Below, in pieces: positions 2,802-38,736 of a DNA stretch of 64,000 nt (its first letter is position 1; each line of letters opens with the position of its first letter). This stretch comes from a virus (lineage: Duplodnaviria; Heunggongvirae; Uroviricota; Caudoviricetes). Below the pieces are notes generated by a model. It had not been told where the DNA came from. It saw nothing but the letters and a program-made list of their open reading frames with translations, and searched no databases. A program made the translations under genes and the position numbers. The DNA is taken from IMG/VR virus record IMGVR_UViG_2687453522_000001; one strand, 5' to 3'.

Positions 2802-5800
2802 TCAACTCTCGCGTAGTCATTCATCAACGGATCATCAATTGACAGTGGCACCGTGCGCATAACGCCCGGTTGAGGCGTGCTGACCTTTACGACAGTTCCC
2901 TGGCCTTTCGCCGAGTCTTTAGTGTGCTCTTCAATCCTGGCAAGCAATGAGGTCATCTGCGCAAACAGCCGCTTCGTTTCACCATCAAGTGAAACGGTAT
3001 TATCAGCCAACTGCATTGTCGGCTTGGCACCGGAGCCGCCAAGGTCACTAATAACCTGTCCGTCTATCTGCATACGACCGGTTGGTTGCTGCAAATCGTT
3101 GGCGGCAGTCGTCACCTGGGACGTGGAGGCTGGTTCAGGCGCATTATTTTTCCGCATCCCCGGCGAGTTGCGGAGTTTATCAAATAGTCCATCAATCCCC
3201 ATTTGTGCGCCGAGTTGGTCAAAGTAACTTGAGTTGCTGGCCACCGGACGCGCCTCTTCAACTGGCATCGGAGTATCAACATACACATTGCCAGCTGCTG
3301 TTGCGGTCCCCTTCCCTCGTGCACGTTCTTCGAGCGTTCCCTGAACGACTTCCCGACGCATACCCCGGCCATTCATGAATTTGTTGACCAGATCGTTAAC
3401 GCCAACAGCATTGCCAATTTTGTCTACCAGACCGCCTTTCTCAAACGGGCTATCACCAGGGGTAAACGCCAGGCCAGTAGACTGATCGATAACAGCGTTA
3501 TCAGGCAGTGGTCCCCTCACTCCATATTGCGCCCCACCCTGTGCTCCTGCTCCAGGTGTATAGATTTCACCACCTAAATAGCGAGCACGATGAGTATTGA
3601 CCTTGATCGCGTACTCACGGTTTTCTTTCGATAAGTCACCTGTGCCTTTTTTCCACTTATTGATAGTGCCAAACCCAGCATTATATGCAGTGATGGCCTC
3701 GTTTAAGTCTCCATTGGCTTGCTTCAGATATTTGCTCATGAGAAGAGCCGCAGCTTCTGCCGATTTCACAGGATCAAACGATTCACCTTCAGCTAAGCCA
3801 GTCTCTTCACGAGCAATCCCCGTGAACTGAAACATCCCCAGAGCACCGGTTTGGGATTTTGCATACGGATTACCACCAGATTCAGTTGCAGCAATCGCGT
3901 AAAGAGTGCCTTCTGGAAGACCGTATTTATTCTCTAGTTCAGCAAAATACGGAGCCAACTTATCGAGATTTGCCTTACCTTCAGCTCCAAGACTTCCGAC
4001 TTTTACATCCAAGTTGCCATTATTGTAGGTATCCGCAGCTTTCTGAATATCATTCCTGGTTCCAGTAGTATTACGCGACGATGATGACGAGCTATTTTGA
4101 CCAATAGCTTTATCAATTTTCTGCAACGCGCTATTGCCCGTTTCTACAGCATTTGCATTGATTATCTGATTGGCAGTTTCTTTAACTGTTTTATTGCTAT
4201 CTTTCGCCGTATCTAGGGATGCATTTACAACACGAGTGACAATATTAGCCTTTTTAGAGGTATATTCAGTCTTAGGAGCATTGTCCTCCTGACGTTCTTT
4301 AGCAGGTGTTTTTAATTCAGGTGTAACCTCTTTCGCATCCGCTTTATTGACTAGCTTTGATGCAACCCAGGCCACTGGGGTGCTCTGAACAGCGGCATCT
4401 GCAACCTCACCTGAAAGCTCTTTTGCGGCACTCCATAGATTACTGCCAGCTTCTTTAATGTATTTCCCTGGGTTCTTAATGAAATCAATTGCACTATCAA
4501 TTGCATCACTGAAAACCTTTTTCAGGTTATCGACAGTAAAGAAGTCTTTGATGGCGTCTAATTTTTCGTTCAGACTCTTGGTTGTGTCACTGAACCAGGC
4601 TGAAATAGCATCGCCAATCTTGGCTGTGTAATCGTTGAATGTTGTGGATATGGTGTCACCAAGGTTAGAAATATATGTTTCTAAATTGGTAATCCCACTA
4701 TCAATGGCCTGGGCAATACTTTCCGTCGAAAATGATTGCAACATATTGCCGATATCCTCAAATCCAAGTGATTTGAGAACGCCACCAATGGCATTGCTAA
4801 TACCAGATACCAGTCCTCCCATATCGAGAACGTTAGCCAGTGTATAAGCCGCTTTTTGCTGAAAAGATGGATCTTCCCCATCCTTAAGCCCAAAGGTCCG
4901 ACGTTGTGCTTCTGTATCATTCCAACCGGTTACCGCATCATAGATACCTCCAGCCACCGTGCCGACTAGCGGAATTGCGCGTAAAGCCCCCTTTGCAAAA
5001 GCCTTAACACCTAGTTTCTCCAATCCCTTAGTTGCAAGTTTTCCGGCACCGCGAGTAGCCAATTCGCCAGCTTCTTTGGCAGCAGCTTTTTTCCCACCAA
5101 AGCCCAATAAGCTTGCAACTTTTTTTATACCTAAAGCGCCTAGTGCCATCGAGCCAACTTTCTTTAGTGCCCCACGGCCAAAAATAAGGGAAGCAATACC
5201 ACCGGCCCCCTTCCCTAACAGGCTAAATAATTTGGACAGCAAGCCGCCCTTCTTTTTCCCGGTGTTTTTGGCTATCTGATCAAGGGCGCTGAGAATCTTG
5301 TCATTGCCCTCTTTAATTTCGCTGGTCTGATCCTGAAGTTCCTGAACCGTCCGTTTTTGGGTGTTAACCTGAACGACATCGGCACTATTTTGCGATTTAC
5401 GCCTAAAAAAACCTTTTCTACGGCTGTTATCGTCATTGCCACGAATCACATCGGCAATAGACTTTCTGGCGCCATTAAGCGATCCACCAACTTCTTTTGA
5501 TATCCCGCCAAGCTCCTTCCCTGCTGCCCACAATGGACCAGCAACGGCATAACCTAACGCATCGACGGCACGAGTCTCTGAAGGGTTACCTATGCCTTCA
5601 GCTACTTTTGACAGTTTTTTTAATAAACCTGATTCAGCATTTAGACGCTCATCATCCTCTTTGCGCCTGGCCTTTTCAGCACGTTCAGCACGGGCATCTT
5701 CCGCTGCGGCCTTACTCCCTGACTTTCCAATAAAACGACCACGCGCATCGCGTTGGTTTTGGCTTTTTTGCGCACCGCCTTTTTGATCGAACATTTCGCG

Positions 5801-30473: not shown

Positions 30474-32734
30474 AAGAGCTGTGCTATGGATCTGTTTGCA
30501 GTGGAATTGAAGCCGCGAGTATTGCCTGGGAACCGTTGGGTATGCGTCCGGCGTGGTTTGCTGAAATCGAGCCTTTTCCATCTGCCGTTCTTGCGCACCG
30601 CTGGCCCCATGTCGCCAACCTTGGCGACATGACAAAACTTGCCAAAAAAGTCCTGGCTGGGGAAATCGAATCCCCTGATGTGCTCGTCGGGGGTACGCCT
30701 TGTCAGGCATTCAGTATCGCGGGCTTACGTGGTGGGCTTGATGATGAACGCGGCGCGCTAACTTTGAAGTATGTGGAGCTTGCAAATGCAATTGACGACA
30801 AACGGTCTGAGTCCTTCCTCAAACCGACAGTTATCGTCTGGGAAAATGTCCCAGGAGTCCTGTCATCGGCAGATAACGCCTTCGGATGTTTCCTTGCCGG
30901 ATTGGCTGGAGAAGATGCGCCATTTGAACCAGGTGATCGACCTGAATCAGGAAAAAGTAACGCGTTCTGGCGGTGGGATGGCAAAACCGGTTGCCATGCT
31001 CCAAAGTGGCCGCAGTGTGGTTGTATTTATGGACCGCAGCGAAAGGTGGCCTGGAGAATCCTTGATGCCCAATACTTCGGAGTGGCACAACGACGCCGAC
31101 GCGTGTTTGTTGTCGCAAGTGCTCGAACAGACTTCGATCCCGCAACGGTACTTTTTGAGTTCGAAGGCGTGCGCCGGAATATTGCGCCGAGCCGAAAAAA
31201 GAAGGAAATCGCTTCCGCCATTACTGCAAATGGCGCTGCAATCAGTGGCGAAAGCCTAAATCCATGCCTACACGCTGGCATGTCCCCCGGTATGAAATCG
31301 ACGAAATCCGTAAACGGTTTCAGGATGGCGGCATTTGGGGAATATATTGACGATGAAACCGCATTGACAGTAAAGGCAAGAGACTTTAAAGATGCCACTG
31401 ACCTTGCCGTTTTTAGCAGCACTGGAGCAGGTTTTTGGTCAGAAGGGCATGGTACATTGCGGGCGCGTGAGCAAGAAAGCCATGAGCATCTTGTTACATT
31501 GGCTTTTCCTGAGCGTATGAGTGGTACACAACATGCAGCAACTAAGAATACTTCACCATCTCTAATGGCTCAAAATCCAACTGCTGTTTGCTATGAAGTA
31601 AGAAACGAAGAAGTAGCTGTCCGCCGTCTTACCCCTGTCGAATGTGAGAGACTTCAAGGTTTTCCTGATGGGCATACATTGATCCCTACGGAAAAGCGTA
31701 AAAAAGTTAATTCAGATGAACTGGCATATCTGCACAATCACTATCCAGATTTAAGCGAAGAAGAGGCCGCAATGCTTGCAGCTGACGGACCGCGTTACAA
31801 AGCGATCGGCAATAGTATGGCGATACCAGTAATGCGCTGGATTGGCGATCGGATTGCCAAGGCTGCATGTCGGCAGAAGGAAGGGAGTGAAACAAAAGAG
31901 CGAAAAGTTAAACCAGCGGCAGAATTCGAACGGTCCATATTCAAATGGGCTGGTGGAAAATTTGGTGTTCTGGAACAAATCTTTCGCTATTTGCCAGAAG
32001 GGAAGCGCCTGATTGAACCTTTCGTTGGTGGCGGAGCTGTCTTCATGAATGCCGGATACCAGGAAAATCTGCTAAATGATGTGAATGCTGACCTGATTAA
32101 CTTTTACAAGACTCTGCAACGCGAGACGCATTCACTTATCACACTGGCGCATCGTTTCTTCCAGGACTACAACACACAGGAAGGATACCTGGCAGTACGG
32201 AATGCGTTTAACAAACAAGTCTATGATGATTTACATCGCGCAGCGGCGTTTTTGTTCCTGAACCGACATTGTTTTAACGGATTGACGCGTTACGACCAGG
32301 CCGGTGAGTTCAATGTCGGTTACGGGAAGTATAAAACTCCGTATTTCCCATTACAGGAGATGGAAGCCTTCCTCGGTGCGGAAGGGCGGTCTGAGTTTGT
32401 ATGCGGTGATTTTGCTGCGGTGATTGAAGCTGCCGGAGAAGGAGATGTCATCTTTTGCGATCCGCCGTATGAACCGCTCCCAAATACAGAGGGATTCACG
32501 AACTATTCCGGTCATGACTTTAAGTTTGAAGAGCAAAAACGCCTGGCGTCTCTGTTGACGGATGCTCATCGCCGAGGTGCAAAGGTTCTCATTACTAACA
32601 GTGGCGCGCCAAACATCAGAGAACTTTATCAGGACAGTGGCTTCAGAGTGGAACCTCTTTTTGCCAGACGTTCTGTGTCTTGTAAGGGGGACACTCGAGG
32701 TGTTGCTCATGACGTTATAGCAATATTGCTCTAA
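30470..32734 (+). CDS. dmt: bifunctional DNA methyltransferase: N-terminal C5-cytosine MTase fused to C-terminal Dam-like N6-adenine MTase
   Basis: 754 aa; [11 protein letters not shown] and ENVPG (C5-MTase) in the N-terminal half; FVGGGAV and FCDPPYEP in the C-terminal half. Confidence 0.85.
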
Positions 32735-32740
32735 TAAATT
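32724..32740 (+). promoter_or_regulatory. C1-type operator overlapping the dmt stop codon
   Basis: ATTGCTCTAATAAATTT, exact match to the recurring 17-mer. Confidence 0.55.
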
Positions 32741-32918
32741 TATTAGTGTAATATCGCCTCAATGAATCGTGATTTATAGAGCGATTTAGCTGTTAGCCGC
32801 GACAGGCGCGGCGGCAAGTATGGCGGGGTAGTGACTCCTTCCCCCTCATGACGCCGAGTTGCCAGGTTGACCATACGCCTAAGTGGCAACACCGAAGTGC
32901 GTTACGAGCTTCCAGTTT

Positions 32919-32945
32919 GCCCATCTTCGGGTGGGCGTTTTTTTC
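32919..32945 (+). terminator. rho-independent terminator
   Basis: GCCCATC-TTCG-GGTGGGC followed by GTTTTTTT. Confidence 0.55.
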
Positions 32946-33409
32946 AGGGTTTTCGTCATGGTTAGCGACTTTGCGGCGGTTTAGAAACTGACCATTAAAG
33001 TAAATGCAAACGATGATCTGATGATGGTAGCGGCCTAAGAAGCCAGACGCCACGGGGTATGAGTCGTCCCCCGTCAAAAAATCGACCGCAGAGTGTCCCC
33101 GTCTGTGTATTAGGGAACGGGGAGGCACAACAGGTAAGGGCGCTGGTGTGATTAACCAGATGAACGAGAAGGGGCCATCTGTTGGTCAGCGTCCTTTCCT
33201 GTTGCGTCTTCTTTTCAGCGTAACAGCGGTGCTTAACAGCACTTTGGGTACAGTTCCACGAATTTACGGGTATATCCCGTCATGCTGAAAGCGCTAATCA
33301 CGCTGGAAGCCAGGGTTATGCATCCCCTGTTACCGAATTGCAGCCAGGGCGCGGTGCGCCGAAAAGCATACGGAGGTGGAAGCCCTCGCCGGAGACGTAC
33401 CCGGCAAGT

Positions 33410-33485
33410 GATGGTGTAGCTCAGCGGTTAGAGCGGTTGACTGTTAATCAACGGGTCGATGGTTCAAATCCATCCACCATCGCCA
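33410..33485 (+). tRNA. tRNA-Asn (anticodon GTT)
   Basis: 76-nt cloverleaf: acceptor GATGGTG/CACCATC, anticodon loop CTGTTAA, T-loop TTCAAAT, encoded CCA. Confidence 0.85.
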
Positions 33486-33487
33486 AT

Positions 33488-33563
33488 GCCGGTTTAGCTC
33501 AGTTGGTAGAGCGCCTGCCTTGTAAGCAGGATGTCAGCGGTTCGAGTCCGTTAATCGGCACCA
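33488..33563 (+). tRNA. tRNA-Thr (anticodon TGT)
   Basis: 76-nt cloverleaf: acceptor GCCGGTT/AATCGGC, anticodon loop CTTGTAA, T-loop TTCGAGT, encoded CCA. Confidence 0.85.
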
Positions 33564-33569
33564 GCACAA

Positions 33570-33674
33570 CAGGTAAGGGTATTTTGCGACGTCGGAGATC
33601 GCCGAGCTTGGCAGAGGGTTCGAATCCCTACGAAGTACCCTTACCGTTGTGATGAATGCGCAGGCTGATGCGCG
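33570..33674 (+). repeat. structured repeat unit A (stem-loop with tRNA T-arm-like core)
   Basis: CAGGTAAGGGTA...TACCCTTACC 10-bp stem around a loop containing GAGGGTTCGAATCCCT; followed by the conserved tail GTTGTGATGAATGCGCAGGCTGATGCGCG. Confidence 0.5.
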
Positions 33675-33836
33675 AAAGACATTGCAGCTATTGCGGAAAA
33701 GAGCTGTTCGGCGGGGCAATTAAACGCCCGTGAGAGTCTGAAATAACCGCAAGCCGGAGATCAGCACCGGTCATCACAACACAACAGGTTGTACTGCACC
33801 CATTTTGTTGGACGATGAAATGGAATAGCCCCTAAT

Positions 33837-34358
33837 ATGTCAAAGCCAAAATACCCTTTTGAAAAGCGCCTTGAAGTCGTGAATCACTACTTCACAACTG
33901 ATGATGGTTACAGGATCATCTCGGCACGTTTTGGTGTCCCCCGAACCCAGGTCAGGACATGGGTTGCCCTCTATGAAAAACATGGAGAAAAAGGTTTAAT
34001 TCCCAAACCTAAAGGCGTTAGTGCTGATCCAGAGTTGCGTATTAAGGTCGTGAAAGCTGTGATCGAGCAGCACATGTCCCTTAATCAGGCTGCTGCTCAC
34101 TTTATGCTTGCTGGTAGTGGTTCTGTAGCCAGGTGGCTGAAGGTCTATGAAGAGCGCGGAGAAGCTGGTTTACGCGCGCTCAAGATTGGCACCAAAAGAA
34201 ACATTGCAATATCAGTTGATCCAGAAAAAGCGGCATCAGCATTGGAGCTGTCAAAAGACCGACGCATTGAGGATCTTGAAAGGCAAGTTCGATTTCTTGA
34301 AACGCGGCTTATGTATCTAAAAAAGCTGAAAGCCTTAGCTCATCCCACGAAAAAGTGA
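33837..34358 (+). CDS. insJ: IS150 transposase OrfA (InsJ)
   Basis: 173 aa MSKPKYPFEKRLEVVNHYFTTDDGY..., HTH-containing OrfA. Confidence 0.9.
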   Translation: MSKPKYPFEKRLEVVNHYFTTDDGYRIISARFGVPRTQVRTWVALYEKHGEKGLIPKPKGVSADPELRIKVVKAVIEQHMSLNQAAAHFMLAGSGSVARWLKVYEERGEAGLRALKIGTKRNIAISVDPEKAASALELSKDRRIEDLERQVRFLETRLMYLKKLKALAHPTKK

Positions 34359-35206
34359 AAGTACTCAACGAGCTAAGGCAGTTTTATCCTCTTGATGAGC
34401 TTCTCAGGGCTGCGGAGATACCGCGCAGTACGTTTTATTATCATCTAAAGGCTCTCAGCAAGCCTGACAAGTATGCGGACGTTAAAAAGCGTATTAGTGA
34501 GATTTATCACGAGAATAGAGGCCGATACGGATACCGTAGGGTAACGCTGTCTCTTCATCGAGAAGGGAAACAGATTAACCATAAAGCTGTTCAGCGCCTG
34601 ATGGGAACCCTCTCACTTAAAGCAGCGATTAAGGTCAAGCGATACCGCTCTTACAGAGGAGAGGTAGGGCAAACCGCCCCTAATGTTCTCCAAAGAGATT
34701 TCAAGGCTACGCGGCCAAACGAGAAGTGGGTTACCGATGTTACTGAATTTGCAGTCAATGGGCGCAAGCTGTATTTGTCTCCAGTAATAGATCTCTTCAA
34801 CAACGAAGTTATTTCTTACAGCCTTTCGGAAAGACCAGTGATGAACATGGTTGAGAATATGCTCGATCAGGCATTCAAAAAGCTTAATCCTCACGAGCAT
34901 CCTGTTCTGCACTCTGACCAGGGATGGCAGTATCGTATGAGAAGATATCAAAATATCCTTAAAGAACATGGTATTAAACAAAGCATGTCCAGAAAAGGCA
35001 ATTGTCTGGATAATGCTGTGGTGGAGTGTTTCTTTGGAACCTTAAAGTCGGAGTGTTTTTATCTTGATGAGTTCAGTAATATAAGCGAACTGAAGGATGC
35101 TGTTACGGAATATATTGAATACTACAACAGCAGAAGAATTAGCCTGAAATTAAAAGGTCTGACTCCAATTGAATATCGGAATCAGACCTATATGCCTCGT
35201 GTTTAA
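34355..35206 (+). CDS. insK: IS150 transposase OrfB (InsK), DDE catalytic domain
   Basis: 283 aa in the -1 frame relative to OrfA, overlapping its 3' end. Confidence 0.9.
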
Positions 35207-35230
35207 CTGTCCAACTTTTTGGGGTCAGTA

Positions 35231-35302
35231 CAGGTAAGGGCATTCTCCCTTATGGGGCTTGGCTTAAATGCATCGAGTGCTCTTACCGTTGTGATGAAGT
35301 GC
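35231..35302 (+). repeat. structured repeat unit B (interrupted at its 5' end by IS150)
   Basis: CAGGTAAGGGCA...TGCTCTTACC stem then GTTGTGATGAAGTGC tail; the IS150 target GGT lies inside CAGGTAAG. Confidence 0.5.
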
Positions 35303-35437
35303 AGCTCTTTGAAGCAACCAGAAGATAAGCATCTGGCTTCACAACATAAACCGCAGGAACGACCAATAAACGGTAGTCCGTATGGAGAACACCCCGTTGA
35401 GGAAGAGGCCTGGCCGGAACCGTAACCGGCACTACAA

Positions 35438-35550
35438 CGTTGAGAACACTGGCGTAACGGGGTCATATCCCAATCTACGAATAAATGTTGCGTTGCAGCG
35501 TGACAACCAGTGTTCTCAACATTGTGGTGAATGCACAGGCTGATGTGCCG
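35438..35550 (+). repeat. structured repeat unit D (14-bp inverted repeat plus conserved tail)
   Basis: GTTGAGAACACTGG ... CCAGTGTTCTCAAC enclosing GTAACGGGGTCATATCCCAATCTAC; followed by ATTGTGGTGAATGCACAGGCTGATGTGCCGC. Confidence 0.5.
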
Positions 35551-35713
35551 CAACTACAGTAGTGCGCGCTTTGCGGGGCTTGCTACAACCCTGTGTCGGA
35601 GTTCAGCACCGACCATCACAGTTTGATTCTCTGGCATGAGCATAACGCTGAAATAAGTCCAGCCTGGTGCGGCCCGATCACCCGCCGTTAGCTCCACGAA
35701 ACGGAGCACGTAA

Positions 35714-35798
35714 CAGGTAAGAGCATTCTCCTGTAACGGGTTCATATCCCAATCTACAGGTCCACCAAGAATGCTCTTTCCGTTGCGGTGAATGCGGC
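35714..35798 (+). repeat. structured repeat unit C
   Basis: CAGGTAAGAGCATTCT ... AGAATGCTCTTTCC stem around GTAACGGGTTCATATCCCAATCTAC; tail GTTGCGGTGAATGCGG. Confidence 0.5.
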
Positions 35799-35937
35799 TA
35801 AGCGCACGCGGGGAAATGGTTATATCAGTCCATTCATTTCTCCTTGTTTCCCCGTCCACGGTGGATAACCAGCCAAAGGACACCGGGAGGCACCCGGCAC
35901 CGCAGCTTTTTTATTCGTTAAATAATGGAGTGAGAGG

Positions 35938-36174
35938 ATGCAGAACAATCCGAACAAATGTCGAACGCTATGGGTGCGGTTATATATTTATGCCGTCCTC
36001 TGTTTGATTGTGTCACTGGTTCTGTATGTTTGGCTTTTGCCAAATATGATCTCATCTAACAGCACAATACTTGTATTGTTGGGAGTCCTTCTCGCGCTCA
36101 TTTACCCGGCTTTCGCAGTAGTCTTTTTTCGTGAAAAAACCAGGAAATTAATTAATGAAAAAAACGTTGATTAG
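35938..36174 (+). CDS. small two-helix membrane protein
   Basis: 78 aa with two hydrophobic segments; 3' end overlaps the start of the lipoprotein gene. Confidence 0.5.
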   Translation: MQNNPNKCRTLWVRLYIYAVLCLIVSLVLYVWLLPNMISSNSTILVLLGVLLALIYPAFAVVFFREKTRKLINEKNVD

Positions 36175-36982
36175 TGCAGCGATTATTTTGGGTTCTTTAT
36201 GTCTGACCGGATGCGATCGGGTAGAGCCAGGTAACGTAGGGATCAAAGTAAATAAGCTGGGGGATGATAAAGGTATCGGTGAAGTAGTTGGCGTTGGTCG
36301 CTACTGGACAGGCTTGAATACTGAAGTTTATATCTTCCCGACCTTTAAGCAAATGAAGACATACGATGAGCCGTTCAGCTTCCAGATGAGCGACGGAACA
36401 ACCATTGGTTACCACATCGGCGTAGCCTACAAGGTTGATCCAGCAAAAGTCACAACGGTATTTCAGACCTATCGCAAAGGTGTAGATGATATTACTGATA
36501 CCGATCTACGCCAGAAGGTTGCAGATGCTCTGAACCGGTTAGCCAGCAAAATGACCACCGACAAATTTATCGACGGTGGCAAATCTGAATTGCTTGATGC
36601 AGCCCTTAAAGACATTCAGGAAGAAATGACGCCAATCGGCATTCAGGTGATGAGCCTCTCTTATGTAGGTAAGCCAGAATACCCGCCAACAGTTATTGAC
36701 AGTATTAACGCCAAAGTCACGGCAAACCAAAAAACCCTGCAACGCGAGCAAGAGGTCAAACAACGTGAAGCAGAGGCCAACATGCTGCGCGCGGAAGCTG
36801 CCGGACAGGCTGATGCTATTCGCACAAAAGCCCAGGCCGAAGCTGATGCCATTCGTTTACGTGGTGAAGCTCTGCGCCAGAACCCCGGTGTTATGGAGTT
36901 GGAAGCGATCAACAAATGGAACGGTACATTACCGCAGTATATGACCAGTAATACCGCTGTTCCGTTTGTTCCGGTGAAATAA
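36155..36982 (+). CDS. plp: SPFH/band-7-like lipoprotein
   Basis: 275 aa; lipobox LCLTGC after signal peptide MKKTLISAAIILGS; C-terminal Ala/Glu/Gln/Arg-rich coiled-coil typical of SPFH proteins. Confidence 0.65.
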   Translation: MKKTLISAAIILGSLCLTGCDRVEPGNVGIKVNKLGDDKGIGEVVGVGRYWTGLNTEVYIFPTFKQMKTYDEPFSFQMSDGTTIGYHIGVAYKVDPAKVTTVFQTYRKGVDDITDTDLRQKVADALNRLASKMTTDKFIDGGKSELLDAALKDIQEEMTPIGIQVMSLSYVGKPEYPPTVIDSINAKVTANQKTLQREQEVKQREAEANMLRAEAAGQADAIRTKAQAEADAIRLRGEALRQNPGVMELEAINKWNGTLPQYMTSNTAVPFVPVK

Positions 36983-37009
36983 AAGCGTAAGCAAAATTGG
37001 CAGTAATCC

Positions 37010-37085
37010 GGCCCTTTAGCTCAGTGGTTAGAGCTGGCGACTCATAATCGCACGGTCACCGGTTCAAGTCCGGTAGGGGCCACCA
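37010..37085 (+). tRNA. tRNA with CAT anticodon (Ile2/Met type)
   Basis: 76-nt cloverleaf: acceptor GGCCCTT/AGGGGCC, anticodon loop CTCATAA, T-loop TTCAAGT, encoded CCA. Confidence 0.85.
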
Positions 37086-37365
37086 TATTTGGTTGTAACA
37101 CGGCGTCTGGCACATGCGTCGTTAGCGGTCTGGTGACGTTAAAAGGGGGGAACCTTGCCCCTAGCTCAGGCAACGAACCAGGTAGCCGGAATGTGCAAGC
37201 CACCGTTTGTTGTTTCTCGGGTAAAGGGATTCACCATCCTGGCGATTCGGTGTGACAGCCGGGAAGAGTCCGGCGCATTAATCCTGATTTTCTGGTGATG
37301 ACTCATATCGTTAGGAGTGATTTGAGTATGCCGATTATATCTGACATTCAGCACGCCTGGGTGGA

Positions 37366-38736
37366 GTGCTAATGTCTGCATCCCCTCTTGAATCCATGCC
37401 AAATTCCCTTAGTGCAGAACAAGCTGTACTTGGTGGCTTAATGCTTGATAACTGCCGCTGGGATGAAGTTGCAGATCGTATAGTTGCTGATGATTTTTAT
37501 ACCAGTGCTCATCGTGAAATTTTCAGTGAGATGGAGAGGTTATTAAGTCATGGCAAACCGATTGATTTGATAACACTTGCTGAAGCACTTGAACAGAACG
37601 GTAAATTAGAACGCGCCGGTGGTTTTGCGTACCTTGCGGAGATGTCAAAGAACACGCCCAGCGCGGCAAATATTTGTGCTTATGCGGATATCGTTCGTGA
37701 ACGCGCGGTTGTTCGTGAAATGATTTCCGTCGCAAATGAAATAGCCGAAGCTGGATATGCGCAGGATGGCAGGGGCAGCAATGAATTGCTGGATATGGCC
37801 GAGCGCCGCGTTTTTGAAATAGCTGAAAAACGACAAAAGAGCGGTAGTGGTCCAAAAGATATCGCCAGCATTCTCGATGCAACGGTATCTCGCATAGAAG
37901 AGTTGTTTCAGCGACCACATGATGGTGTAACGGGGCTTGATACGGGATTTACCGATCTCAATAAGAAGACGGCAGGGCTTCAGCCGTCCGATCTCATCAT
38001 TGTCGCCGCCCGCCCATCTATGGGGAAGACCACGTTTGCGATGAATCTCGTCGAAAATGCCGCAGTTCGTAACGATAAGCCCGTATTGGTTTTTAGCCTT
38101 GAGATGCCGAGCCACCAGCTGATGATGCGCTCACTGGCTTCTCTTGCACGCGTTGATCAGACTCGTATTCGGACAGGGCAACTTAACGACGAGGATTGGG
38201 CGCGGGTTTCTGGCGCAATGGGTATTCTGTTGGACAAGCAGAATATTTTTATTGATGACTCAAGCGCCCTGACACCTACAGAGCTTCGTTCCCGCGCTCG
38301 TCGTGTTTATAAAGAAAATGGTGGTTTGAGCATGATTATGATCGACTACCTGCAACTTATGCGCGTCCCCGAGCTGCAAGATAACCGAACGCTGGAAATT
38401 GCCGAGATTTCTCGCTCACTGAAGGCGTTGGCGAAGGAATTACAAGTACCGGTGGTGGCATTGTCACAACTTAATCGATCGCTTGAACAGCGTGCGGACA
38501 AACGACCGGTAAATTCAGATTTACGTGAATCAGGAGCAATTGAGCAGGACGCAGACCTGATCATGTTTCTGTATCGCGACGAAGTTTATCACCCGGATAG
38601 CGAAATGAAGGGCATTGCCGAGGTAATTATCGGAAAGCAACGAAATGGCCCAATTGGCACGGTGAGATTGGCTTTTAACGGCCAATACTCACGGTTTGAT
38701 AACTATGCTGGTGCTGACTGGCAAGAGGATTATTAA
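37366..38736 (+). CDS. ban: DnaB-family replicative DNA helicase
   Basis: 456 aa; Walker A ARPSMGKTTF, Walker B-like IMIDYLQLM and a RecA-like C-terminal domain. Confidence 0.9.
   Translation: MLMSASPLESMPNSLSAEQAVLGGLMLDNCRWDEVADRIVADDFYTSAHREIFSEMERLLSHGKPIDLITLAEALEQNGKLERAGGFAYLAEMSKNTPSAANICAYADIVRERAVVREMISVANEIAEAGYAQDGRGSNELLDMAERRVFEIAEKRQKSGSGPKDIASILDATVSRIEELFQRPHDGVTGLDTGFTDLNKKTAGLQPSDLIIVAARPSMGKTTFAMNLVENAAVRNDKPVLVFSLEMPSHQLMMRSLASLARVDQTRIRTGQLNDEDWARVSGAMGILLDKQNIFIDDSSALTPTELRSRARRVYKENGGLSMIMIDYLQLMRVPELQDNRTLEIAEISRSLKALAKELQVPVVALSQLNRSLEQRADKRPVNSDLRESGAIEQDADLIMFLYRDEVYHPDSEMKGIAEVIIGKQRNGPIGTVRLAFNGQYSRFDNYAGADWQEDY

Follow-up and report, generated by a model that had tools for sequence, protein, structure and literature searches.

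SPFH (band-7) proteins form oligomeric rings or domes over a patch of membrane. Here we analyse an SPFH lipoprotein gene and the small membrane protein gene that overlaps its start (35938-36982, plus strand) in a 64,000-nt stretch of viral DNA, IMG/VR record IMGVR_UViG_2687453522_000001. This whole stretch, hereafter the window, is by its sequence a P1-like phage-plasmid. Judged from sequence comparisons, three points are new: a lipid-anchored SPFH protein and a transmembrane (TM) hairpin not of the NfeD type are strictly linked, as a two-gene module, in phages of great diversity; scaffold and partner have very different evolutionary rates; and the cassette that holds them is an alternative allele of P1 variable region 7. 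We begin with the described systems closest to this pair.

The closest solved structures by sequence, also among the top matches by fold, are those of Escherichia coli HflK/HflC (PDB 7VHP, 7VHQ, 7WI3 and 9CZ2). They share with the window protein the SPFH fold, the long helix and the C-terminal segment, and their SPFH domain lies on the periplasmic side of the inner membrane, as we propose for the window protein. HflK/HflC, however, have an N-terminal TM helix and come as a K/C pair, whereas the window has a lipid anchor and one SPFH gene. The hflKC operon is followed by a small two-TM gene, yjeT; the window partner is instead located upstream of the SPFH gene and exhibits no detectable homology to YjeT, a candidate relationship that we ruled out by profile comparison (hhalign probability 1.2%).

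In SPFH-NfeD operons (QmcA-YbbJ, PDB 8Z5G; stomatin/NfeD), a small membrane protein gene likewise adjoins the SPFH scaffold gene and is co-transcribed with it. QmcA-YbbJ is among the fold matches of the window protein (E-value = 7.5e-8). The window partner is adjacent to its SPFH gene and co-oriented with it as in these operons, but it has no NfeD/OB-fold domain. The first-pass annotation of the window, made from the sequence alone, had proposed a search for an NfeD fold; such a partner is now ruled out, as Pfam gives no NfeD match even at E<=1 and the 78 residues form a wholly helical hairpin. QmcA, moreover, faces the cytoplasm, whereas the SPFH protein of the window is predicted to be exported.

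The best structural match of the window protein is found in the prohibitins (SPFH4; human PHB1/2, PDB 9O9Z and 8RRH; E-value = 4e-13). SPFH4 proteins have been described as diverse, probably periplasm-facing and without NfeD. The identity between the prohibitins and the window protein is only 13-15%, and the prohibitins carry an N-terminal TM anchor; the likeness to SPFH4 is one of structure and description.

In phages, a homologue has been named MbpS in the genus Kayvirus (Staphylococcus phages K, G1 and P4W), and aligns to 98% of the query at 26% identity. The upstream gene, mbpV, encodes a small membrane protein, as in the window pair, and abuts mbpS. Unlike the window protein, MbpS has an N-terminal TM anchor and no lipobox; MbpV has one TM helix followed by a charged coil and is missed by the hidden Markov model (HMM) of the partner used below; and the MbpV-MbpS genes reside in a lysis-gene neighbourhood, unlike the window pair. 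Finally, the PHROG database holds both families as annotation bins in which no linkage between them is recorded. Both window proteins are clear members, the 275-aa protein of PHROG 200 'lipoprotein' (E-value = 2.3e-113) and the 78-aa protein of PHROG 1130 'membrane protein' ('moron/host takeover'; E-value = 6.4e-16), and their genes are adjacent.

The SPFH lipoprotein and its hairpin partner

Two open reading frames (ORFs) on the plus strand, 35938-36174 and 36155-36982, overlap by 20 nt, just as the first-pass annotation had placed them. Their features are the following.

35927-35937, plus strand: Shine-Dalgarno region GGAGTGAGAGG of the partner gene, read from the sequence
35938-36174, plus strand: partner gene, 78 aa, a two-TM helical hairpin with predicted N-in/C-in topology
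36155-36982, plus strand: SPFH/band-7 lipoprotein gene, 275 aa (Pfam, PHROG, AlphaFold2 and Foldseek)
36155-36217, plus strand: lipoprotein signal peptide, lipobox LTG/C, Cys20 codon at 36212-36214, Asp at +2
36218-36778, plus strand: SPFH (Band_7) domain, aa 22-208, Pfam envelope; an alpha/beta domain in the model
36686-36880, plus strand: single long helix, aa 178-242, EA-rich and of coiled-coil type (AlphaFold2); aligns to the helical region of HflK
36908-36934, plus strand: motif I-x-K-W-(N/D)-G-x-x-P, aa 252-260, the most conserved C-terminal motif

The match of the 275-aa protein to Pfam Band_7 (PF01145) is highly significant (E-value = 9.7e-31; 107.6 bits against a cutoff of 23.6) and covers profile positions 2-176 of 176. 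Its AlphaFold2 (AF2) model, built with 31 homologues (mean predicted local distance difference test score 73.8), consists of a beta/alpha domain (residues 19-175), a 65-residue helix (178-242), a short helix (246-253) and a disordered tail. A Foldseek search of this model against the PDB returned 64 matches at E<=1e-3, the leading ones being SPFH proteins or major vault protein. The top matches are all cage-forming SPFH proteins, with PHB1/2 followed by HflK/C (1e-12) and then by erlin, stomatin, flotillin and QmcA-YbbJ; major vault protein stands lower in the list. A structure search of BFVD likewise yielded many viral Band 7 proteins. The SPFH/band-7 lipoprotein with a long C-terminal helix suggested in the first-pass annotation is thus upheld by the domain match, the lipobox and the model, and the fold itself passed the structure-prediction check at E-values of 4e-13 to 1e-12 against cage subunits of prohibitin, HflK/C and erlin.

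The relation to HflK and HflC is less close than the best matches might suggest. Three of the four PDB matches found by sequence are HflK (E-value = 2e-4 to 4e-3), mostly over the EA-rich helix. The best NCBIfam partial matches, to HflC and HflK, reach 24.7 and 23.3 bits, well short of the TIGR01932 and TIGR01933 equivalog cutoffs of 134.4 and 159.4 bits, respectively. Given the fold matches together with these scores below cutoff, we regard the 275-aa protein as a bona fide SPFH protein and not as an orthologue of HflK or HflC.

The lipoprotein begins with MKKTLISAAIILGSLCLTG/C, a lipobox with Asp at the +2 position. A lipobox was identified in 109 of 137 unique family members, with Asp the commonest +2 residue. 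N-terminal attachment to the membrane is accordingly predicted to be through a lipid anchor and not a TM helix. At the other end of the protein, residues I252, K254, W255, G257 and P260 are invariant in homologues as low as 22% identity, and this conserved motif is compatible with assembly into a ring or cage.

Some database entries label the SPFH protein a 'putative serine protease' (RCS47, FO818745 77509-78336; Stx2 phage LC567820; Erwinia phages S6 and Pastis). Pfam detects Band_7 alone, without any protease domain. The label seems to be an error passed on between records, which the Band_7 assignment would correct; it was possibly inherited from the NfeD/ClpP-type partners of other SPFH operons.

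The upstream gene had been described as encoding a two-helix membrane protein, and this description holds. Its product exhibits two hydrophobic segments and basic termini, including a basic C-tail, and is modelled as a helical hairpin (helices 5-39 and 43-77). The predicted topology places TM1 at about aa 12-34, the turn at aa 40-42 and TM2 at about aa 43-64. In 112 unique partners the only fixed residues are a Pro (100%), a Ser (100%) and a Gly (95%). In the window these correspond to Pro35 and Ser39, both at the predicted periplasmic end of TM1, and to Gly49 in TM2. A narrow partner profile searched against 1.84 billion representative proteins retrieved just 26 clusters; 25 of them have lengths of 61-87 aa, and the remaining one (723 aa) was matched at profile positions 6-24 only. 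The breadth of the partner family is more apparent from synteny than from sequence.

Both ORFs are genuine: homologues of the SPFH protein form 719 clusters at E<=1e-3, and the partner has, beside its PHROG 1130 match, 52 close clusters, one of them present on at least 1000 contigs.

Variants of the partner gene were also observed. A run of T near its 3' end (36124-36129) counts six residues in the window and RCS47 and five in vB_EcoM-813R1, where the resulting frameshift shortens the annotated partner ORF; either a sequencing error in the homopolymer or a genuine inactivation may account for this. The locus of IMGVR_UViG_2529293038_000017, otherwise identical and of P1 type, is a rare disrupted copy, with a 1.95-kb insertion (~999-2951) in the partner ORF at the equivalent of window positions 36106-36111. 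In the predicted RNA structure of 35860-35945 (minimum free energy -25.5 kcal/mol, z=-2.25), the partner Shine-Dalgarno sequence pairs with an upstream U-run, a weak signal that the local fold may mask translation of the partner.

Linkage of the two genes across phages

The SPFH protein was detected by tblastn in 795 of 50,697 phage records (~1.6%), from virulent as well as temperate phages. Among them are Staphylococcus Kayvirus (mbpS), Pseudomonas Bruynoghevirus, Vequintavirinae, Caulobacter phages, jumbo phages, Erwinia and Klebsiella phages of about 70-75 kb, a crAss-like phage and Halorubrum tailed viruses. Matches are also present in 459 of 5,426 complete E. coli genomes (~8%), at 200 places on plasmids and 310 on chromosomes. 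The pair is real, common and already annotated ("SPFH domain-containing protein"), with some of the phage homologues annotated as prohibitin family.

A small ORF was found directly upstream of the SPFH gene in all six diverse contexts inspected. Among 80 near-identical IMG/VR loci, a two-TM partner is present in essentially every locus with enough upstream sequence. The two genes overlap by 20, 7, 4 or 1 nt in these close loci, the 20-nt overlap of the window and RCS47 being the majority state.

For a more diverse sample, 246 phage loci comprising 12,680 ORFs were scanned with an iterated partner HMM. Exactly one ORF matched in 210 of the 246 loci. The matching ORF lies within 500 nt upstream of the SPFH gene in 204 of these 210 cases (<=60 nt in 185; 60-500 nt, with one small ORF between, in 19), and never on the opposite strand. 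Six clusters defined at 70% identity had no HMM match. Four of them still exhibit an upstream small two-TM ORF with a P-x-(L/M)-x-S-like loop; the remaining two, from Staphylococcus and Caulobacter, have partners of other architecture. No third gene is conserved across the lineages, every neighbour cluster being limited to one or two SPFH lineages.

The partner evolves at a much higher rate than the SPFH scaffold. In the 80 close loci, three very different partner alleles (78, 67 and 62 aa) stand beside SPFH proteins that are 92-100% identical. Where SPFH proteins are 80-90% identical, the mean identity of their partners is about 33%. Copies in E. coli chromosomal prophages align to the window at the nucleotide level (~86% identity) only from the lipobox Cys codon, 36212, onward. 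Divergence thus affects the partner and the signal-peptide region jointly, as a single block, and spares the mature SPFH part.

The cassette, its slot and its operon

By megablast against phage genomes, the region 33300-37400 is a Punavirus (P1-type) element, its top matches being vB_EcoM-813R1 (99.9%), RCS47 (99.1%) and several "P1" isolates. When the window is aligned to P1 (NC_005856), homology stops at 35904 and restarts at 37001, 9 nt before a tRNA gene. In P1 proper, the genes tciA-tciB-tciC occupy this interval between upl and trnI. From these alignments the pair is a sharply bounded cassette, standing in the place of tciABC inside the C1-repressed ban operon. The features of the slot and of the operon are listed below.

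35905-37000, plus strand: exchangeable cassette of about 1.1 kb, found in place of tciABC as the SPFH allele of P1 'variable region 7'
35881-35897, plus strand: GC-rich hairpin CACCGGGAGGCACCCGG, a stem-loop on folding, just outside the left end of the cassette in flanking sequence common to both alleles
32725-32741, plus strand: exact copy of the C1 repressor operator, ATTGCTCTAATAAATTT, at Pban/Op72 in front of the entire operon
33410-33485: tRNA-Asn (ARAGORN)
33488-33563: tRNA-Thr (ARAGORN), the left-hand tRNA bounding the interval of the pair
33790-35232, plus strand: IS150 (1443 bp, terminal repeats as expected), separating the cassette from the operon promoter
37010-37085, plus strand: CAT-anticodon tRNA, the right-hand landmark of the slot
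37366-38736, plus strand: ban, DnaB-type helicase, the downstream gene in the same operon (P1 annotation)

The two alleles of the slot have a similar make-up. Like the SPFH pair, tciABC (P1 locus 3996-4692) combines one protein that is not an integral membrane protein with mini membrane proteins: TciA is soluble and TerB-like, TciB (54 aa) has two TM helices and TciC (35 aa) has one. The alleles are unrelated in sequence, and they differ in location: TciA, of TerB type, is cytoplasmic, and the SPFH protein is predicted to be periplasmic. In PLSDB, the SPFH pair was found in 194 plasmids (188 full-length), tciABC in 289 plasmids (191 full-length) and the flanks of the slot in 659 plasmids. A comparison of P1-like phage-plasmids (PMC9603915) counts tciABC among eight variable regions and describes it as "lost" from nearly half of the elements, without any mention of SPFH. 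The SPFH cassette is what replaced tciABC in P1-like plasmids reported simply as having "lost" it. A foreign base composition of the cassette is ruled out by its GC content of 43-48%, which is similar to that of the backbone.

The operator at 32725-32741 corresponds to P1 Pban/Oban, annotated as controlling ban. Since ban follows the slot in the same orientation, the cassette would be co-transcribed with it and repressed in the prophage state. Its sequence context suggests expression early in lytic growth, when C1 repression is lifted. The operator is followed by the 'dicF-like' region of P1 (32853-32945), which ends in a strong terminator-like hairpin (32915-32937) and a T-run; only transcription that passes this hairpin can extend to the tRNAs, the cassette and ban.

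Other phages keep the pair in comparable places. In the P2-like phage P88, the pair (gp11/gp12, with a 4-nt overlap) is part of the early operon, with cox on one side and the replication gene on the other; a location in the P2-type defence hotspots (tin/old, Z/fun) is ruled out in P88. In a lambdoid prophage, the pair is located between cI and xis-int on the same strand, a position compatible with PL-type or prophage expression. The first-pass annotation had hinted at a defence or exclusion context. This hint received no direct support: the repressor-controlled early operons of P1 and P88 are not known defence hotspots, the SPFH protein has no match among the PADLOC-DB v2 defence-system models, and the partner has only a 12-bit match there (E-value = 0.023).

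The same annotation had placed the pair in a variable interval between tRNAs beside an IS150 insertion, which agrees with the map given above. The IS150 copy is 100% identical to annotated copies and is flanked by a 3-bp GGT target duplication (33787-33789 and 35233-35235). It cuts the minus-strand gene plp after codon 107 of 139 and leaves upl intact (35554-35745, minus strand). The remaining plp ORF (35203-35553, minus strand; P1 locus 3235-3612) is Cys-rich, has a non-ATG start and exhibits no lipobox in its translation; in P1, plp overlaps tRNA-Thr in antisense. From its sequence, plp is doubtful as a real lipoprotein gene. We ruled out that the SPFH pair is itself P1 upl/plp, which are separate minus-strand genes by tRNA-Thr and both also present in the window. 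The right-hand tRNA gene is called tRNA-Met (CAT) by ARAGORN, whereas the identical gene is annotated in P1 as tRNA-Ile2 (trnI), a reading that would require lysidine modification. A search of the slot against Rfam found three tRNAs only, and no other structured RNA or leader.

What the pair may do

The proposal that we favour, tentatively, is that early in lytic growth this coupled accessory cassette equips the inner membrane with an SPFH cage that faces the periplasm and in which the hairpin is the integral-membrane part. The two ORFs would be translationally coupled and transcribed with the C1-repressed ban operon. The 275-aa product would be exported and lipidated at Cys20. Under the +2 rule of lipoprotein sorting, Asp at this position signals inner-membrane retention, and it would keep the lipoprotein on the periplasmic face of that membrane. 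There, the SPFH domain, the long helix and the C-terminal motif could build an oligomeric ring or cage capping a patch of membrane, as in HflK/C, prohibitin and stomatin. Cellular SPFH proteins obtain a TM component either through an N-terminal helix of their own or through an NfeD partner; in the phage pair the 78-aa hairpin would fill this place, and if the two proteins pair physically, Pro35, Ser39 and Gly49 would sit at its contact with the lipoprotein on the periplasmic side. The outcome would be a fenced inner-membrane microdomain in the infected cell. To these steps taken jointly we give slightly less than an even chance. As to the pay-off, our guess is protection or insulation of the inner membrane against entry of superinfecting DNA, pore-formers or premature depolarisation. 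Envelope protection or exclusion is favoured because the module is accessory, early and interchangeable with the membrane-associated TerB-type tciABC.

Several observations weigh against this proposal. We found in the literature no functional study of the pair and no report of an exclusion or protection phenotype; what is written there on phage SPFH roles consists of annotation-level remarks and speculation. The +2 residue is often not Asp in relatives (Ser in 22 and Glu in 18 of the 109 lipobox-bearing members), and inner-membrane retention may therefore fail across the family. The confidence of the AF2 model is only moderate, and its C-terminus is disordered. Partner identity drops to 15-45% where the SPFH proteins are 92% identical, and a specific contact accounts for such divergence no better than a loose or generic one. 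A promoter scan gave no sigma-70-like sequence immediately ahead of the pair at its threshold, and IS150, inserted between Pban and the cassette and ban, may have a polar effect; expression of the pair in this particular element is for these reasons uncertain.

Among the alternatives, mimicry of HflK/C holds up best. The periplasmic SPFH ring would bind or enclose host FtsH and alter how it degrades regulatory or membrane-protein substrates, stabilising phage proteins or biasing the lysis-lysogeny decision as lambda CIII and host HflKC do. The PDB and NCBIfam matches to HflK and HflC point in this direction, as does the predicted periplasmic orientation shared with them; the pair also occupies early operons, where lambda keeps cIII, and promotion of lysogeny through FtsH has already been suggested, as speculation, for Burkholderia phage CSP3. 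However, the NCBIfam scores are far under their cutoffs, the sequence match concerns chiefly the EA-rich helix, the structural closeness is about equal for prohibitin, erlin, stomatin and HflK/C, and a single SPFH lipoprotein gene offers neither an N-terminal TM helix nor a K/C paralogue pair. Homologues are present, moreover, in haloarchaeal viruses, and we know of no FtsH in haloarchaeal hosts. We consider this alternative unlikely.

A role in the control of lysis or permeability is suggested by the partner, which has the gross features of class II holins and pinholins (60-85 aa, two TM helices, predicted N-in/C-in topology, a charged C-tail). The hairpin would then be a holin-like or channel-forming effector, corralled or timed by the SPFH ring. 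Its match to the holin family PHROG 565 is insignificant (E-value = 0.099), and no lysis cassette or endolysin was found at the slot, the genes in and around it being the tRNA genes, upl/plp, IS150 and ban. P1, in addition, encodes its own holin and antiholin elsewhere in its genome. More generally, the pair lies in early or DNA-metabolism regions, and not in lysis cassettes, in P1, P88 and virulent enterobacterial phages. It is in Kayvirus that the neighbourhood speaks for lysis, as mbpS and the upstream mbpV are located between the endolysin gene lysK and the lysin gene tgl; the authors of the Kayvirus work noted that MbpV resembles holins, and a contribution to Sec export of a lysin has been put forward there as speculation. 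MbpV, however, has no detectable homology to the enterobacterial partner, and a lysis function of the window pair seems rather unlikely to us.

Counter-defence is a quite improbable role, in which the cage would shield the inner membrane from depolarising abortive-infection effectors or sequester them. It would suit an accessory module that sits in a variable slot and in early operons, that recurs across virulent and temperate phages (the 795 records) and that has a fast-evolving partner. The idea is purely inferential, though, we found no mention of SPFH in the anti-defence literature, and a highly conserved SPFH protein is unlike the usual arms-race inhibitor. Very improbable is a surface or virulence lipoprotein of lysogenic conversion acting on the animal host: the HflK/C-like prophage protein PM0222 of Pasteurella multocida, found in outer-membrane vesicles and having roles in TLR1/2 signalling and virulence, is a precedent, but PM0222 is at most a putative orthologue of the window protein, the family abounds in strictly virulent phages and archaeal viruses, Asp at +2 predicts inner-membrane retention, and the pair is under lytic-cycle control in P1.

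Returning to the favoured proposal of an inner-membrane cage, a more general form of it would make the pair a portable device for sealing the inner membrane, whether in exclusion of superinfecting phages and colicins or as a counter to depolarising abortive-infection effectors. We regard this extension as doubtful. If true, it would explain why the module is carried in the early operons of many unrelated virulent and temperate phages, and why a fast-evolving membrane partner stands beside a conserved scaffold.

The pair represents a minimal two-gene SPFH system, a lipid-anchored scaffold with a hairpin of 60-85 aa. SPFH proteins are universal, and cage structures obtained by cryo-electron microscopy have multiplied since 2022. 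The P1 slot is genetically tractable and has a natural alternative allele. It offers a handle on the effect of an SPFH cage on a bacterial membrane, and on what a phage gains from installing such a cage early.

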